Shown here: positions 3,021 to 9,469 of the stretch, one piece after another
Position numbering within the stretch: the first letter of the stretch is position 1
Layout of the letters: the number at the start of each line of letters is the position of its first letter
Made by a program: the position numbers and the translations under genes
The notes under the pieces: generated by a model
What the model saw: the letters and a program-made list of their open reading frames with translations, nothing else
Told to the model about the DNA's origin: nothing
Databases searched by the model: none
Origin: Promethearchaeum syntrophicum
Lineage (GTDB): Archaea > Asgardarchaeota > Lokiarchaeia > Sigyniarchaeales > Promethearchaeaceae
DNA length: 32,000 nucleotides
Assembly: GCF_008000775.2 (NCBI RefSeq)
Contig: NZ_CP042905.2
Location: forward strand, 600,001 to 632,000
Reading direction: 5' to 3'

Positions 3021-3503
3021 TTAATCTCGGTGAAGATGATGATCCCACAATCCATCTTTTTTGCCTTGTAATTCATAGGTCGCCATTAACTCATTGGATT
3101 GCGATTCTTCTTCAATTTGTTCGTGAACAAACCATTGTAACATTTCTATAGCTTCATATTCTTTCTTTTCATATGCAAGTTCTAATAACCCTCGAATCTT
3201 CTTTGTAATGAATTCTTCATGTTCGATGGTTGCTTTAATGGTAGCTTCGGTGTTTGGATATTCAGTCGGGACTTCTCCGATTGTATTCAATTTTACATGC
3301 CCGCCAGTTTCAATAATATAATTCATAAAGCGTTCTGCATGTTCATATTCTTCTTTAAATTGTTTTTTCATCCACGCTGCATAATTATGCAGAGAACGCT
3401 CTTCTGCCCAAAGAGAGATGCCTAAATATATATAACCAGATTTTAATTCTTCGGTTATTTGAGCGTTAATTGCATCATTCATTTCTTTACTAATTAATGT
3501 CAT
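3021..3503 (-). CDS. ftn: Ferritin-like iron-storage protein
   Basis: 160 aa. MNDAINAQITEELKSGYIYLGISLWAEERSLHNYAAWMKKQFKEEYEHAERFMNYI matches the ferritin four-helix-bundle diiron ligand pattern (E..E..H, E..E). Confidence 0.85.
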   Translation of the reverse strand: MTLISKEMNDAINAQITEELKSGYIYLGISLWAEERSLHNYAAWMKKQFKEEYEHAERFMNYIIETGGHVKLNTIGEVPTEYPNTEATIKATIEHEEFITKKIRGLLELAYEKKEYEAIEMLQWFVHEQIEEESQSNELMATYELQGKKDGLWDHHLHRD

Positions 3504-3694
3504 TTGTAATCAAATATGGATAAGAAAATGTCTTAATTAAAACTGATTATTTATACTATAAATCGATTTTGCTAGTTTAATTATAATTTGTAAAGGAAAA
3601 ATGAATTGTCTTTCATTTATTAAAACCCATTTTATATTTTCTTTCTTTTTTATTAGAAGTAGTCTTTTTTATCCTAGCTCTCAGTAATTATTTA

Positions 3695-3937
3695 ATGTCA
3701 AACGAAGAAAAACCAAAAATTTCTCTTGATTGCATTGGATTATTTTGCCCCGAGCCGTTATTTGAAACACGTGAGAAGATAGATTCTATTGATGTTGGCG
3801 ATGTTCTAGAAGTATTTGCAGATGATCCCGCAGCTGAAGAAGATTTGAAGCGATTTTGTAAAAGAACTGGCCACTCTCTTCTTAAATTTGAGAATAATAA
3901 TGGTGAATTTCGATTTTTAATTAAAAAAGAAAAATAA
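3695..3937 (+). CDS. tusA: TusA/SirA-family sulfurtransferase
   Basis: 80 aa. LDCIGLFCPEPLFETREKI contains the family CPxP active-site motif. The size is typical. Confidence 0.85.
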   Translation: MSNEEKPKISLDCIGLFCPEPLFETREKIDSIDVGDVLEVFADDPAAEEDLKRFCKRTGHSLLKFENNNGEFRFLIKKEK

Positions 3938-3944
3938 ATTAGAG

Positions 3945-4316
3945 ATGAAAAAAATGAAAAATGAAAACTCAATTTTATATGTACAGACAAGTGATGATGC
4001 GGAACGTCAATATTCTCCCCTAGTTTTGGCTCAATCTGCAAAAGCGATGGATATTGATGCAAAAGTCTATTATCTTGGCCAAGGTTTACGAACTCTCAAA
4101 CCTGAAACTGCAAAAAACATTAAACTCGGAAATTTCCCGAGTATTGAAGAAATGATTCAAAAAACTCTAGATATGGGTATAGAAATTTTTGTGTGTGAAG
4201 CATCTAAACAAATGCTCGGTTGGGACAAAGTTACATTAGTTCCTGGTTGTAAAATTGTTGGAGCTGCAACCTTGAATGATTTAGTTCTAGATGCTGGCGC
4301 AACAATGTGGTTTTAA
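3945..4316 (+). CDS. dsrE: DsrE/DsrF-like sulfur-relay family protein
   Basis: 123 aa, starting 8 nt after tusA. ILYVQTSDDAERQYSPLVLAQSA...VYYLGQGLRTL...FVCEASKQMLGW fits the DsrE-fold pattern with a conserved Cys. Confidence 0.7.
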   Translation: MKKMKNENSILYVQTSDDAERQYSPLVLAQSAKAMDIDAKVYYLGQGLRTLKPETAKNIKLGNFPSIEEMIQKTLDMGIEIFVCEASKQMLGWDKVTLVPGCKIVGAATLNDLVLDAGATMWF

Positions 4317-4422
4317 TTATAATTAAGCCCTTTTTTCTTACTTGTTAATTACAAAAAAAAATATAGAAAAATGAGAATAGGGTTAGAAAATAAAAGAAAT
4401 ATCAAATAAAAGGAAAAAAAAA

Positions 4423-5610
4423 ATGTTAGAAACAAATAAGAAACAAATATACTTGGATTACCAATCATCAAAACCAGTAGATCCCCGAGTAATTGATGCA
4501 ATGATTCCCATTTTTAATGAAAAATATGGAAATCCCTCATCCCTTCATGGAATCGGTGATCAAGCAACTGATCTCCTCGAAAAAAACCGTGAAATCATCG
4601 GAAAATTCATTAATGCGGACTCAAACGAAATTCTATTTACAAGTAGTGCCACCGAATCGATTAACCTCGGCATTTTGGGTTATGCACTACGAAATAAAAG
4701 AAATGGTAACCACATTATTATCTCGGAAGTCGAGCATATTTCATTACATAATATCGCAAAATATCTTGAAAAAAACGGTTTTCGAGTCTCAAAAGTGCCT
4801 GTTGATCAATATGGTCGTGTTAAAATAAACAAAATTAAATCTCGCATTACCGACCAAACTATTCTGATCTCAGTTCAGATGGCAAATAATGAAATCGGAA
4901 CTATTCAACCAATTAAAGAAATCGGAGAAATCGCATCCGAACATAATATTCCCTTTCACACTGATGCTGTTGCTGCTGAAGGGCAAATCCCGATTGACGT
5001 AAAAAAAAATAACATCAATATGTTAACTTTAAGTAGCAATGATATCTATGGTCCAAAAGGAGTGGGTGTATTGTATTTGAAGAAAGGTATTCGAGTTCAA
5101 CCTCAAATTATAGGAGGAGGACAAGAACGTGGATTTCGTTCTAGTACAGAAAACATATCTGGAATTGTTGGAATGGGAAAAGCGGTGGAAATTGCACAGC
5201 AAGAAATGGAAAGTGAATCCAAACGATTAATTGGTTTTAGAGAAAAAATAATTAAGGAAATTATAGAAGGAATTCCACAAACATATCTAAATGGCCATCC
5301 AACAGATAGACTACCAAACAATTCACATTTCAGATTTGAAGCAATAGAAGGGGAATCCATTCTTCTATCTTTTAAAGATCTGGGAATTGCAGTATCTACT
5401 GGATCAGCATGCAGCTCGAAAACATTGGAACCGTCTCACACATTAATTGCTACGGGACTTTTACATGAAGAAGCTCACGGGTCTCTTGAAATTACCACAG
5501 GAAGATTTACAACTCCTAATGATGTTGAGAAAATGATTGAAGTAACTCCCGGGATTGTCAAAAGATTACGGGATTTATCACCTCTCTACAAGGAAAAACC
5601 CGAAAATTAA
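4423..5610 (+). CDS. iscS: IscS/NifS-family cysteine desulfurase homolog lacking the PLP-binding lysine
   Basis: 395 aa. Class V aminotransferase motifs are present: FTSSATESINL, ANNEIGTIQP, HTDAVAAEG and the Cys loop STGSACSS (Cys codon 5410-5412). The canonical SGHK(I/L)YGPKG reads SSNDIYGPKG (Asp codon 5041-5043). Confidence 0.9.
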   Translation: MLETNKKQIYLDYQSSKPVDPRVIDAMIPIFNEKYGNPSSLHGIGDQATDLLEKNREIIGKFINADSNEILFTSSATESINLGILGYALRNKRNGNHIIISEVEHISLHNIAKYLEKNGFRVSKVPVDQYGRVKINKIKSRITDQTILISVQMANNEIGTIQPIKEIGEIASEHNIPFHTDAVAAEGQIPIDVKKNNINMLTLSSNDIYGPKGVGVLYLKKGIRVQPQIIGGGQERGFRSSTENISGIVGMGKAVEIAQQEMESESKRLIGFREKIIKEIIEGIPQTYLNGHPTDRLPNNSHFRFEAIEGESILLSFKDLGIAVSTGSACSSKTLEPSHTLIATGLLHEEAHGSLEITTGRFTTPNDVEKMIEVTPGIVKRLRDLSPLYKEKPEN

Positions 5611-5671
5611 GCTTACTAAAAAATAAAAAAATAAAAAAATAAAAAAATATTCAAAACAGGAAGAGAAAAAA

Positions 5672-6499
5672 ATGAAATCAACAAATTACTCAGAAAAAGT
5701 TTTAGACCACTTCAAAAACCCTAGAAATGTTGGGACTTTAGATGGTGGCGATGTTGCCAGTGGTAGGGTTGGAAACCCGACATGTGGTGATATCATGGAA
5801 ATGTATATTGAAGTGAAGGATGATATCATAAAAGATATCCGATTTCAAACCTTTGGTTGTGGATCTGCTGTTGCTACTTCTTCGATGACAACTGAAATGG
5901 TTAAGGGAATGTCTCTCGATCAAGCATTGAAAGTAACCCGAAAGGATGTTGCAAACGAATTAGATGGTTTACCTCCAATTAAAATGCATTGCAGTAATCT
6001 CGCAGCGGATGCTCTTCATGAAGCGATCCGCAATTACCGCGCAGGAAATTATAATAAAGAACCCACAGGAATAGCGGAAATTAAACCCCAAACTAACGTT
6101 ATTAAAGGTGAAATCGATTATATTGGTAAAGGAGTCTCTTATCAAGTTAAAAATTATGCTGATTATAAAGATCAACGGGTTTTAGTTCTATTTAAAGGAG
6201 ATATTTCAATCGAAATTGCTCTAGAATTAACGAAGCATACTGGTAGGGTAATTTTATTAACCCTTGAAAAAGAAATAAAGAGTGATAATGATTTAAGAAA
6301 GAAACTTCTACGGTCTGATGTTAAACTTTTGTACGAAGCAAAACTCCTGGAAATTCTCGGAGAAGGTGAAGTGGAAAAAGTTAAGATTTTAGACTTAGAT
6401 GAGGAAGATAAATATGATCTTTTTGTAGATTCAGTTATTATTCCCGAACATTTAACTATCCCAAGCACAACTGAATGTTCGGATGATATTCCTCTTTGA
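5672..6499 (+). CDS. iscU: IscU Fe-S scaffold fused to a degenerate thioredoxin-reductase-like NAD(P)H-domain
   Basis: 275 aa. Residues 1-125 are IscU, with GNPTCGD, FGCGS and KMHCSNLA carrying the three ligand Cys. Residues ~145-260 (GKGVSYQVKNYADYKDQRVLVLFKGDISIEIALELTKHTGRVILLT...VEKVKILD...DLFVDSVII) align by eye with the TrxB NADPH domain. Confidence 0.85.
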   Translation: MKSTNYSEKVLDHFKNPRNVGTLDGGDVASGRVGNPTCGDIMEMYIEVKDDIIKDIRFQTFGCGSAVATSSMTTEMVKGMSLDQALKVTRKDVANELDGLPPIKMHCSNLAADALHEAIRNYRAGNYNKEPTGIAEIKPQTNVIKGEIDYIGKGVSYQVKNYADYKDQRVLVLFKGDISIEIALELTKHTGRVILLTLEKEIKSDNDLRKKLLRSDVKLLYEAKLLEILGEGEVEKVKILDLDEEDKYDLFVDSVIIPEHLTIPSTTECSDDIPL

Positions 6500-6706
6500 T
6501 ATTTTTGCTTTTTTTTTCATTTATTTCTATTATTAGAGTTTGACTAATAATTTTATTAATCCCCGAGTATTTCCTTAAAAACTCAATTTAACAGCATATA
6601 AACATTTAATAATGCTTATTTTGATCTAATATGTGACAATTTAGATGAAATTTTGTGAAAATGTAGATATTGTATAAATAGTTCAACTATCTCGGAAAAG
6701 AAAAAA

Positions 6707-9469
6707 ATGAGCAATGAAGAAAATAAGAAAGCTGATATCAAACTTAAGAAAAGTCACGTAATGATTGCAATATTAATAGGAACAATTGTACTTGGTATTG
6801 GTGCTTTGCGCCTACTTCACCATGATTTCAATATTGTAAGTCTGTATAACGATGATGAAATCGAATTTGATGTTTATGTTTCAGGATCGTATGCGTATGT
6901 AACGATATATCAGGATGGTTTAAAGGTTCTAGATATTTCCGATCCGACCAATCTGGTGGAAGTGGGACATTTTGATGATGGTGATGGTGGTGCAGAAAAG
7001 GTTTTTGTTTCGGAATCGTATGCGTATGTGGCGACAGATGAGGATGGTTTAAAGGTTATTGATATATCCGATCCCACCAATCCGGTGAAAGTGGGACATT
7101 TTGATGATGGTGATTATCCAGAAAGTGTTTATGTTTCTGGTTCATATGCTTATGTAGGGTATAATTATGATGCTGAAGGTTTGAAGATTATCGACATTTC
7201 CAATCCAACATCCCCCACGAAGGTTGGATTCTTTGACGATGGCAGTGATTATGCGCAAAATATTTATGTTTCCGGATCGTATGCTTACATAGCGGAAGCT
7301 GGGGATGGTTTGGCGATTCTCAACATTTCCAATCCAACAACTCCCACGAAAGTGGGACATTTTGATGATGGATTTGTACAGGATGTTTATGTTTCGGGAT
7401 CGTATGCGTATATTGTGGTAGGTAGTGATGGGTTAGCAATACTTAACATTTCTGATCCGACCGATCCAGTGGAAGTGGGGTATTTTGATGGTAGTGGTGG
7501 TGCAGAAAGTGTTTATGTTTCGGGATTGTATGCGTATGTGGCGACAGATGAGGAAGGTTTAAAGGTTATTGATATTTCCGATCCGACCAATCCAGTGGAA
7601 GTAGGACATTTTGATGATGGGGGAAATCTTAAAGAAGTGTTTGTGATCGGAGGTTATGCCTACGTTATCGATTGGAGAGATGGTTTGGAAATCATTGATC
7701 TTTGGAGCCCAAAAGAAAAAATTTCAAATAATATTCTATGGGGAATTATGGGTATTCTCATTTTTCTCACTCTGGTTGATCTCCGGGGCCTTATCAAGGA
7801 AGCTCTACCAATCTGGGAAGATTATCGAGATTTCAAGGATGAAGGGAAGAGAATAAAAATATTGGGTATATGTAAGGGTTTTTTCTTGACAATAGGAATA
7901 CATTTGGTTAATTTAATTATCCTTCTTCTATTTTGGAAACATCCCGATCCATATACATATCAAGTTATTCTAAAGTTCCTTATATTACCACTATTTATAA
8001 TATCCGTAGTAATTAACATTAAAATAATAACTCGAACTCTCAGACGAAATCGTATATACTTTTTCCTTGGATTGATATTTCCGTATTTAATGGCATTGCT
8101 TATTGGAATTTTCTTAATAATAAATTATATCATTATAAATGTTAGTCCAGGAACACTTCTTGTGAAAAATCCACAAGTTCACATAATTGTTCTTGGGTCA
8201 CTTAGCCTATCCCTTGGTATTCTATTGTTATTAATGTTAAAGATATATTCTAAAGAACAAGGGGATGGTCATCTAAAAGGAGAAAAAATGAAAGATGAAG
8301 AAAGAGAAAAAGAAGAAAAAAAGAAAATCGATACCAAACTCAAGAAAAGTCAGATTAATGCTGTGATATTATTAATCGGGTTAGTAGGACTTATTATTGG
8401 AGCAAGTTTTCTTCTTTATCATAATTTCAATATTATCGGGTATGTTGATAATGGTGGATTGGCAAATGATATTTATATTTCGGGGTCGTATGCGTACGTA
8501 GCGGATGGTCGTGATGGTTTAGAGATCATTGACATTTCTGAACCGACCGATCCAGTACAAGTGGGACAAATCTATGATGGTAGTGGAAATGCAAATAGTG
8601 TTGCTATTTCGGGGTCGTATGCGTACGTGGCGGATGGAACCGATGGTTTAGAGATTATTAACATTTCCGACCCGACCGCCCCCGTAAAAGTGGGAGAATT
8701 TTATGATGATAGTGGGGAGGCACTTGGCGTTGCTGTTTCGGGATCGTATGCGTACGTGGCGGATGGTCGTGATGGTTTAGAGATCATTGACATTTCCAAT
8801 CCGACCGATCCAGTACAAGTGGGTCAATTTGGACATTTCTATGATTATGGATATAGACGGGATGTTGCTGTTTCGGGGTCGTATGCGTACGTAGCGGATG
8901 GTCTTAATGGTTTAGAGATCATTGATATTTCCGATCCCACCACTCCTGTGGAAGTGGGACAAATTTATGATGGTGGAGATTCATATGGTGTTTCTGTTTC
9001 GGGATCGTATGCGTACGTGGCGGATGGTCGTGAAGGCTTAGAGATCATTGATATTTCCGATCCCACCACTCCCGTGGAAGTGGGACAAATCTATGCTGAT
9101 AAAGGATCTGCACGCGGTGTTTATATTTCGGGTTCGTATGCTTATGTCGCCCATAGTGAACATGGCTTAGAGATCGTTGACATTTCCGATCCGGCCAATC
9201 CGGTTGAAGTGGGAAACATCAATAGTTATAGTGGAAATGCACGTGGTGTTTCTGTTTCGGGTTCGTATGCTTACGTGGCGGATGGTCGTGGTGGTTTAGA
9301 GATTATCGATCCTTGGAGCTCAATAGAAATAATATCCAATATCATTCTTGGAATTCTAATCTTTCTGGTATTGGTGTTGATCTTCATTACATATTTAAAG
9401 AATTTTTACCACTCTAACGAGGATGTATCCAAAAAGATGGAGTATCAAAAATTGAATAATGATTATTGA
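6707..9469 (+). CDS. Membrane protein with two seven-repeat LVIVD (beta-propeller) modules separated by a polytopic TM region
   Basis: 920 aa with 7+7 repeats of SGSYAYVA..DGL.IIDISDPT.PV.VG. Both modules start with a basic segment plus TM helix (KKADIKLKKSHVMIAILIG.. and KKIDTKLKKSQINAVILLIG..) and end with D(L/P)WS plus a TM helix. Confidence 0.85.
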   Translation: MSNEENKKADIKLKKSHVMIAILIGTIVLGIGALRLLHHDFNIVSLYNDDEIEFDVYVSGSYAYVTIYQDGLKVLDISDPTNLVEVGHFDDGDGGAEKVFVSESYAYVATDEDGLKVIDISDPTNPVKVGHFDDGDYPESVYVSGSYAYVGYNYDAEGLKIIDISNPTSPTKVGFFDDGSDYAQNIYVSGSYAYIAEAGDGLAILNISNPTTPTKVGHFDDGFVQDVYVSGSYAYIVVGSDGLAILNISDPTDPVEVGYFDGSGGAESVYVSGLYAYVATDEEGLKVIDISDPTNPVEVGHFDDGGNLKEVFVIGGYAYVIDWRDGLEIIDLWSPKEKISNNILWGIMGILIFLTLVDLRGLIKEALPIWEDYRDFKDEGKRIKILGICKGFFLTIGIHLVNLIILLLFWKHPDPYTYQVILKFLILPLFIISVVINIKIITRTLRRNRIYFFLGLIFPYLMALLIGIFLIINYIIINVSPGTLLVKNPQVHIIVLGSLSLSLGILLLLMLKIYSKEQGDGHLKGEKMKDEEREKEEKKKIDTKLKKSQINAVILLIGLVGLIIGASFLLYHNFNIIGYVDNGGLANDIYISGSYAYVADGRDGLEIIDISEPTDPVQVGQIYDGSGNANSVAISGSYAYVADGTDGLEIINISDPTAPVKVGEFYDDSGEALGVAVSGSYAYVADGRDGLEIIDISNPTDPVQVGQFGHFYDYGYRRDVAVSGSYAYVADGLNGLEIIDISDPTTPVEVGQIYDGGDSYGVSVSGSYAYVADGREGLEIIDISDPTTPVEVGQIYADKGSARGVYISGSYAYVAHSEHGLEIVDISDPANPVEVGNINSYSGNARGVSVSGSYAYVADGRGGLEIIDPWSSIEIISNIILGILIFLVLVLIFITYLKNFYHSNEDVSKKMEYQKLNNDY
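8440..9300 (+). repeat. Highly similar ~126-140-nt intragenic tandem repeats (LVIVD units of module B)
   Basis: Strings such as tcggggtcgtatgcgtacgt(a/g)gcggatggtcgtgatggtttagagatcattga(c/t)atttcc recur at about 8471, 8611, 8740, 8875, 9001, 9129 and 9257. Confidence 0.85.

Follow-up and report, generated by a model that had tools for sequence, protein, structure and literature searches.

An IscU scaffold with a non-catalytic thioredoxin reductase-like domain beside a lysine-less IscS in Promethearchaeum syntrophicum

The 'minimal' MIS system, which builds iron-sulfur (Fe-S) clusters, consists of IscS and IscU only and is inferred to be ancestral. Its scaffold, MisU, is described in IscU-like and three-domain NifU-like forms only, with no short fusion type among them, and the electron donors of MIS are given as unknown (2026 review, PMC13066941). 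A solved example of an IscS-IscU pair is the (IscS-IscU)2 complex of Archaeoglobus fulgidus (PDB 4EB5 and 4EB7), the subject of Marinoni 2012, Yamanaka 2013 and Pagnier 2014 as cited in PMC7585200. A. fulgidus IscS2 is reported to have no desulfurase activity and to contribute a Cys that ligates the cluster bound by IscU (PMC7585200). The A. fulgidus IscU itself consists of a single domain without extensions (138 residues in the crystal). In NifU, an IscU-type N-terminal domain is extended by accessory domains serving cluster assembly, namely a [2Fe-2S] BFD-like domain and an Nfu domain. Here we analyse a stretch of 32,000 nucleotides from Promethearchaeum syntrophicum (contig NZ_CP042905.2, positions 600,001 to 632,000 of the forward strand; hereafter the window), in which an IscS without the pyridoxal phosphate (PLP)-binding lysine is followed by an IscU extended by a thioredoxin reductase (TrxR)-like NADPH domain. 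A preliminary description of the locus, made from the sequence alone, knew of no IscU-TrxR-like fusion, and we likewise found no description of this short fusion, or of the full-length fusions presented below, in the literature searched. The extension is a real, widespread and undescribed accessory domain on a known scaffold, to which we tentatively assign a function below.

A complete IscU followed by a TrxR-type fold

Profile searches and a predicted structure identify residues 6-125 as a complete textbook IscU. This half matched Pfam NifU_N with an E value of 9e-48 (162 bits against a cut-off of 22) and NCBIfam TIGR03419 with 189.1 bits, over the curated cut-off of 187.9. The IscU ligands C38, D40, C63, H106 and C107 are all present, and they are invariant in 24 of 24 aligned members of the family introduced below. 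Foldseek superposed the predicted model on A. fulgidus IscU (4EB5_C; 62% identity) with an rmsd of 1.2 Å, and the two proteins have the same ligands. They differ in that A. fulgidus IscU has neither a TrxR-like domain nor an extra Cys arm. The model for three-domain NifU, TIGR02000, matched only over positions 3-125 of 290, with 146 bits against a cut-off of 273. Thus the window protein resembles NifU in being an extended IscU, but the central [2Fe-2S] domain and the C-terminal Nfu domain are absent from it.

The preliminary description had aligned positions 6104-6451, which are residues 145-260 of the 275-residue protein, by eye with TrxR. It named a profile or structural match to pyridine-nucleotide disulfide oxidoreductase domains as the test of this alignment. 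Such matches were found, far above chance, and they confirm from sequence profiles and the predicted fold that the C-terminal 116 residues are a homologue of the TrxR-type NADPH domain. Searched alone, the C-terminal piece matched TIGR01292 (thioredoxin-disulfide reductase; E 6e-15) over profile positions 112-232 of 300, corresponding to the NADPH domain only. Pfam Pyr_redox_3 matched residues 138-237 with an E value of 7e-6, under its gathering score, and the weaker matches to Pyr_redox and Pyr_redox_2 were likewise sub-threshold. The 35 PDB chains retrieved by phmmer were all TrxR, AhpF or TrxR-like ferredoxin/flavodoxin-NADP+ reductases (FNRs). The best of them was the Thermus thermophilus FNR 2ZBW (E 1e-6), the second best was 5J60, the Gloeobacter DTR, an NADPH-independent relative of TrxR, and Bacillus subtilis YumC (3LZW) and the Chlorobaculum FNR (3AB1) were further matches. 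AlphaFold modelled residues 143-258 as a Rossmann core with a three-stranded β-meander. The per-residue confidence score (pLDDT) averaged 87-95 in 10-residue blocks over most of the domain and 77 in the first block (141-150), which includes part of the linker. In Foldseek the domain superposed on the NADPH domains of 2ZBW (again the top match, E 3e-11), 3F8P and 2Q7V at E values up to 1e-10, with rmsd values of 1.3-2.5 Å across ~120 residues. The expectation that the fold persists despite the loss of catalytic features was therefore borne out.

With residues 135-275 as the query, we recovered 78 protein clusters of 257-299 amino acids (aa) that have the same two-domain architecture, hereafter the short fusions. 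In the window protein, the NADPH-like domain has just a linker of 17 residues before it and a tail of 17 residues after it, too little for the two-part flavin adenine dinucleotide (FAD) domain with its GxGxxG and GD motifs. The GxGxxA dinucleotide loop (GGGNSA in TrxB) is replaced by F-K-G-D-I-S, as the preliminary description had noticed and as we located at 6191-6208; the family consensus here is x-x-G-x-x-S, the first Gly having changed to K, D, N, T or R. The HRR site of TrxB for the 2'-phosphate is T-L-E-K. At the position of the TrxB CxxC (CATC) the protein has Y-Q-V-K, in a column that is variable over the family. Every defining catalytic feature of TrxB and of the TrxR-like FNRs is thus missing, as judged from sequence and fold, and the fold of one domain remains. 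With no FAD domain, no GxGxxA loop and no 2'-phosphate site left, it has lost the ability to work as a reductase. The TrxR-like FNRs share with it a CxxC-less motif after the first Gly-rich turn and belong to the same clade, but they are complete homodimeric FAD enzymes that transfer hydride and have working NADPH sites with HRR. Gloeobacter DTR and the clostridial ferredoxin-dependent FFTR set a precedent, as their TrxR-type 'NADPH domains' are functional although pyridine-nucleotide binding has been lost. These two proteins differ from the window protein in that FAD and CxxC are kept, and they are still disulfide reductases.

The lysine-less cassette and the single flanking cysteine

The IscS encoded next to the fusion has SSND where canonical IscS has SGHK, and it keeps the Cys loop GSACSS. 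The preliminary description was therefore right in calling this IscS lysine-less. Among solved structures it is closest to A. fulgidus IscS2 (4EB5_A, E 5e-135), which likewise has SSND. Of the 22 loci that extend far enough upstream, 21 have the order tusA-dsrE-iscS-iscU-fusion, the exception being one locus (L013) with no DsrE match. The IscS of these loci always has SSND, once in the form SAND. In Lokiarchaeia-type genomes with several IscU genes, plain IscU lies beside an IscS with S[GA]HK, without tusA or dsrE, and the fused IscU lies beside the lysine-less IscS. The domain is thus specific to the lysine-less sulfur-relay system and is not found with the canonical IscS of the same genomes. 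On one Lokiarchaeia-type contig (L069 2112-8636) both systems occur, the lysine-less cassette containing the fused IscU being separated by 2.3 kb from a plain IscU with its canonical SGHK IscS.

The second recurrent feature is a single cysteine outside the domain. Among 83 distinct family sequences, 43 have a Cys in the linker only, 33 in the tail only and 7 in neither position; none has both. The linker Cys lies at -9 to -12 before G146 in most members, and the tail Cys at +9, +14 or +16 after D253. The tail Cys of the window protein is C269 (codon 6476-6478, context E-C-S-D-D). In two AlphaFold models, one of a tail-Cys and one of a linker-Cys member, both positions fall in low-confidence segments (in the window protein, pLDDT under 50 for residues 130-141, with a mean of 33 for block 131-140, and under 50 for residues 259-275), and these segments are presumably flexible. 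Since the strands by which the chain enters and leaves a TrxR NADPH domain lie next to each other, the linker and tail tethers would leave the domain at the same spot. On a tree built without the linker and tail segments the Cys states need five changes, in two of which, both within the tail-Cys clade, the tail Cys gives way to a linker Cys. An Asgard locus with plain IscU and an SSND IscS, and with no tusA or dsrE in view (L062 6919-8490), codes for a His-rich acidic IscU tail with a C-terminal Cys (…DEDHHDHACEP), which may represent the tail Cys in minimal form.

No genes for HscAB, Fdx, IscA or CyaY were found in the window operon, which consists of tusA, dsrE, iscS and iscU only. A conserved adjoining ferredoxin was considered as the obvious partner and rejected, as none of the short-form cassettes inspected has a Fer4 or flavodoxin gene next to it. 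In two bacterial loci (L003 6478-7995 and L005 7979-9691) a class-I pyridine-nucleotide disulfide oxidoreductase is encoded 1-1.2 kb downstream of the cassette. The L005 enzyme has a rhodanese domain, like CoA-persulfide reductases, and the archaeal loci are without such a downstream gene. A promoter and terminator scan of positions 3400-6800 gave nothing over shuffled controls; its patterns were bacterial consensus sequences, which are irrelevant for an archaeon.

Table 1. Genes of the cassette and parts of the IscU fusion protein, in window coordinates.
Feature	Coordinates	Strand	Basis
tusA, sulfur carrier (Cys in CPEP motif), cassette gene 1	3695..3937	+	Pfam TusA E 5e-25; conserved position
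dsrE-family sulfur-transferase gene, cassette gene 2	3945..4316	+	Pfam DsrE E 2e-14; conserved synteny
IscS/MisS homologue without PLP lysine	4423..5610	+	Aminotran_5 E 2e-70; SSND for SGHK
Whole iscU-fusion open reading frame, single and unbroken	5672..6499	+	275 aa
IscU (NifU_N) scaffold domain, residues 6-125	5687..6046	+	NifU_N, TIGR03419, Foldseek, ligand columns
Flexible linker, residues 126-142	6047..6097	+	Low pLDDT, dN/dS 0.22-0.29, Cys pattern
TrxR-like NADPH domain, putative remnant, residues 143-258	6098..6445	+	Profiles, phmmer, AlphaFold, Foldseek, tree
Degenerate dinucleotide loop FKGDIS replacing GxGxxA	6191..6208	+	Family consensus x-x-G-x-x-S
Family-specific T190-G191-R192 loop, between helix A and strand 2	6239..6247	+	Alignment, residue frequencies
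S215-D216-V-K218 motif, start of strand 3 (S, D and K invariant)	6314..6325	+	Alignment, residue frequencies
Flexible acidic tail, residues 259-275, with C269	6446..6496	+	pLDDT <50; Cys pattern

Proposed role and origin of the domain

We favour, with moderate confidence, a reading in which the window protein is an MIS-type scaffold that carries a non-redox docking remnant of a full-length IscU-flavoprotein fusion together with a mobile Cys. The scaffold belongs to an Archaeoglobus-type 'minimal' Fe-S pair whose IscS partner has no PLP lysine, with the sulfur carriers TusA and DsrE preceding the pair. Both halves of the FAD domain would have been deleted from the ancestral fusion, leaving the CxxC-less TrxR-like NAD(P)H-binding domain as a protein-docking module on the IscS-IscU complex. 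A docking role, or a regulatory one, is plausible. Candidate partners are reduced ferredoxin or flavodoxin, with which the domain would carry on what the lost flavin part did, as well as the TusA/DsrE relay and the basic IscS groove that frataxin and ferredoxin use in canonical ISC. In the ISC system of Escherichia coli this groove binds acidic frataxin/CyaY and ferredoxin; the mean net charge of the short-fusion domain is -7.5, compared to -2.0 in other TrxR-like proteins. The domain may position the one mobile Cys, of linker or tail, near the assembly site, where it could act as an extra (fourth) cluster ligand or as a persulfide relay. Flexible Cys arms on DsrC/TusE are served by DsrE-family proteins, which offers an analogy for a persulfide shuttle.

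The evidence on origin comes from full-length fusions of ~444 aa, in which a complete CxxC-less TrxR-like flavoprotein is attached to IscU. These abound in Methanoperedens, and a Jordarchaeaceae-type Asgard group has them too; in one Asgard family, the IscU of five genomes lies in open frames of 449-475 aa. Their database names are 'NifU', 'IscU 2' and 'thioredoxin reductase'. The full-length fusions resemble the window protein in an IscU that is 68% identical, in a CxxC-less reductase of the 'GVYY.V' type, in shared NADPH-domain motifs and in a neighbourhood with an SSND IscS and DsrE or TusA. They differ in keeping both FAD halves (GGGPAG ... GD) and the GxGxxA loop, whereas in the window protein only the inserted NADPH domain is left and its loop is dead. 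R169, K218, E235 and E244 of the short family are found in 100% of the full-length fusions, and the motifs RSD and VEKV..HDLDEDE..EL.VD are common to the short family and the Jordarchaeaceae-type fusions. The latter keep the FAD motifs, and their NADPH site keeps GxGxxA (G-N-G-E-Q-A) but has lost HRR (Y-K-E-K), an intermediate state of decay. In a tree of NADPH domains the short family is monophyletic (100/100 support) and nests (99/99) in a CxxC-less TrxR-like clade of the 'GVYY.V' type. This clade holds all full-length fusions together with stand-alone CxxC-less proteins, and the true CxxC TrxRs lie outside it. The preliminary description had counted the redox CATC among the lost features; CxxC is indeed absent, but in view of this nesting its loss in this lineage is unlikely, and the direct ancestor probably had no CxxC whichever origin holds. 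Similarly, the NADPH fold is of TrxR type as had been stated, but the likely source is a full-length IscU-flavoprotein fusion rather than TrxB.

On these sequence comparisons we judge it fairly probable that the short form is a remnant of an ancestral full-length fusion. The NADPH domain of TrxR-type flavoproteins is an insert inside the FAD domain. Because of this, the change from full-length to short is the parsimonious direction, and it would require that a stop codon cut off the C-terminal FAD half and that the N-terminal half was deleted in frame. The foremost alternative is that the NADPH domain of a stand-alone TrxR-like ferredoxin/flavodoxin reductase was captured by IscU independently, with the same non-redox role; we consider this possible but doubtful. 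In its favour, the maximum-likelihood tree does not make the short family sister to the full-length fusions, and two stand-alone proteins (P0123 and P0128) are equally close in the domain tree. However, the domain being an insert, two precise breakpoints are needed on either route. Moreover, the short-family profile scored the Jordarchaeaceae-type fusions at 92 and 91 bits and other fusions at 84-75 bits, compared to 78 bits for the best stand-alone protein, which places the best full-length fusion 14 bits over it. Short and full forms also occur in the same unusual operon type, with SSND IscS and DsrE or TusA.

Several observations weigh against the reading of the window protein as a docking remnant with a mobile Cys. 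The sister group of the short family in the domain tree is not settled, and a constraint uniting short and full forms gave p values of 0.26 and 0.37 in the approximately unbiased (AU) test; the constraint is thus not rejected, which in turn speaks against independent capture. The IscU-domain tree, in which branches are very short and two 'unfused' rows are partial or frameshifted fusions, has no clade of short and full forms and puts four short-form members beside unfused IscUs, as independent capture would have it. AlphaFold gave no confident packing of IscU against the NADPH-like domain (pTM 0.50-0.51), each domain being confident in both models. The Cys is not universal, as six Cys-less sequences form two small clades (the seventh Cys-less entry is partial), and the mutual exclusion of the two Cys positions rests on few independent events and is suggestive rather than strong. 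The conserved patch described in the next section is placed by topological reasoning and not by coordinate measurement. Finally, lysine-less cassettes with plain IscU exist (the Asgard loci L061, L062 and L063 and A. fulgidus 4EB5), and because of these the domain is neither obligatory nor essential in the lysine-less system.

A bolder form of the docking reading, which we regard as speculative and unlikely, is that the acidic Rossmann remnant and the tethered Cys form an entry port for sulfur or electrons on the lysine-less IscS-IscU complex. A TusA/DsrE persulfide relay or reduced ferredoxin/flavodoxin would dock on the acidic remnant, and at the assembly site the tethered Cys would either deliver sulfane sulfur or supply the ligand that completes the cluster. 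If true, this would be a new, PLP-independent route of sulfur and electrons into Fe-S biogenesis, and together with the full-length flavoprotein relatives it would make up a stepwise series from built-in reductase through NADPH-blind reductase to docking stub. In any case the fusions provide concrete candidates, all of them clonable, for the interface by which archaeal Fe-S assembly obtains sulfur and electrons, and they form a natural series for testing what that interface requires. The importance of the short form is moderate until its partner is found.

The sister systems with complete reductases can have a flavodoxin gene alongside. In Methanoperedens (L057 4263-8023 and L008 592-2356), dsrE and iscS (SSND) are followed by the full-length fusion and then by flavodoxin, which looks like a complete scaffold-plus-reductase-plus-carrier unit. 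In the Jordarchaeaceae-type loci (L055/L056 1076-7347 and L068 4421-8131), two or three unrelated genes lie between tusA/iscS (SSND) and the fusion, which is followed by an FmdE/zinc-finger gene.

Constraint and distribution of the short fusions

The short family has invariant residues of its own, namely G154, R169, L186, G191, R192, S215, D216, K218, G230, V234, E235, V237, E244, L250 and D253. S179, T187, T190, G191, R192, D216 and F251 are near-universal in the family and occur in at most 10% of other TrxR-like proteins; S179 is present in 92% of the family and in 0% of the others. From Rossmann topology, R169, T-G-R and S-D-x-K would mark the N-terminal ends of strands 1-3, on the face across from the old nucleotide crevice. 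The placement bears on the idea that a nucleotide-like ligand, be it NAD(P)H, ADP, CoA or a flavin, still binds in a remodelled Rossmann site, and that the domain is a metabolic or redox sensor gating Fe-S assembly. The Rossmann core is intact with high pLDDT, the middle Gly of the loop is retained in 88% of members, and a small residue, S179, is as frequent as stated, all of which would suit a ligand site. However, the first Gly is replaced, and the Asp common there in bacterial members would repel pyrophosphate; the 2'-phosphate site HRR/HRK has become T-x-x-K; no conserved acidic residue stands at the end of strand 2; and the family-specific invariants would sit far from the crevice, on the N-terminal edges of strands 1-3. 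We therefore consider a ligand sensor improbable.

The preliminary description had called the domain a fossil. That its catalytic features are gone agrees with this, but the substitution pattern does not. Between the window protein and two Promethearchaeum relatives, the ratio of nonsynonymous to synonymous substitution rates (dN/dS) was 0.021 and 0.037 for the domain, 0.043 and 0.030 for the IscU domain and 0.22-0.29 for the linker. By this measure purifying selection on the domain is as strong as that on IscU, and the domain is not a neutral fossil. Archaeal and bacterial members are still 45-55% identical within the domain and share its invariant motifs (G-R and S-D-x-K), and single copies are retained over two large Asgard families. 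A functionless relic tolerated on the end of IscU is thus very improbable, even though all recognisable catalytic features are lost and plain IscU serves lysine-less cassettes elsewhere.

The distribution of the fusion also settles the concern, raised in the preliminary description, that a frameshift or assembly error had joined iscU to a separate gene. The data refute such an artefact: the frame is continuous in a closed 4.3-Mb contig, the same architecture recurs in the 78 clusters and in more than 20 independently assembled loci, with dozens of independent assemblies showing it in all, and public 'IscU' entries of about 190 aa are frameshifted fusions, not separate genes. The domain is carried, in one copy each, by 143 of 301 sampled Asgard genomes. 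The carriers include 5 of the 7 genomes in the family to which the window belongs, 64 of 68 in a sister family of the same order (f2) and 69 of 76 in a third family (f9), with essentially none in other families. A hand count from the table of the best 150 IscU matches in this Asgard sample put ~88 in open frames of 257-317 aa. Named species-representative loci come from Promethearchaeum (93-98% identical to the window protein), Lokiarchaeum ossiferum, Sigynarchaeum, Thorarchaeota and Bathyarchaeia. Further loci come from peat-bog Methanobacteriota and Halobacteriota metagenome-assembled genomes (MAGs), Syntrophobacterales and Thermodesulfobacteriota. In Lokiarchaeia-type archaea, a second large Asgard family and several other anaerobe lineages, the scaffold that goes with the lysine-less, TusA/DsrE-linked system always has an added domain of flavoprotein-reductase descent. 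A phmmer search of 1.8 billion representative proteins with the domain found no stand-alone copy and no other fusion partner; it returned fragments of the same fusion and then ordinary TrxR-like proteins. Publicly, short fusions are named 'NifU-like' or 'scaffold protein', and the Lokiarchaeum entry is named 'Ferredoxin--NADP reductase'.

The family tree departs from organism phylogeny. Sigynarchaeum groups with the peat-bog Methanobacteriota and Halobacteriota MAGs, and one Promethearchaeia MAG falls among bacterial-type sequences. In addition, the four short-form members that lie beside unfused IscUs in the IscU-domain tree contrast with a C-terminal domain that is monophyletic. These patterns suggest lateral transfer, perhaps with domain recombination, in the history of the family.

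Some candidates did not hold up as members or variants. One locus found by motif (L036) codes for an ordinary CxxC TrxR. IscU entries of 190-217 aa on long contigs were considered as a third architecture and rejected as frameshifted or truncated calls of the same fusion. Four high-GC bacterial 'IscU' entries on long contigs (P0348, P0361, P0370 and P0377; 187-213 aa) run into Arg/Pro-rich nonsense past the linker and look like frameshift errors in long-read assemblies of the fusion gene. A possible exception to the frameshift explanation is a 213-aa protein of candidate division WOR-3 (P0380), in which IscU is joined straight to the domain from helix A onward, without strand 1 and the entire former dinucleotide loop. 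Either the domain is further reduced here or the gene call or the assembly is at fault.

In the window, the cassette is flanked by a ferritin gene and an LVIVD-repeat gene. The ferritin-like gene (3021-3503, minus strand; Pfam Ferritin E 2e-29) is divergent and lies 190 bp upstream of tusA, which places iron storage beside the Fe-S assembly cassette. Elsewhere the genome has genes for a SufB-like protein and for a further class-V aminotransferase, as well as for a second, divergent protein of IscU type with 184 aa (NifU_N E 1e-20). The gene for the last (G000 contig 1, 3944074-3944433, minus strand; locus L002 1498-2052) adjoins a glycosidase-like gene and not an iscS, and its product has a 60-residue N-terminal extension.

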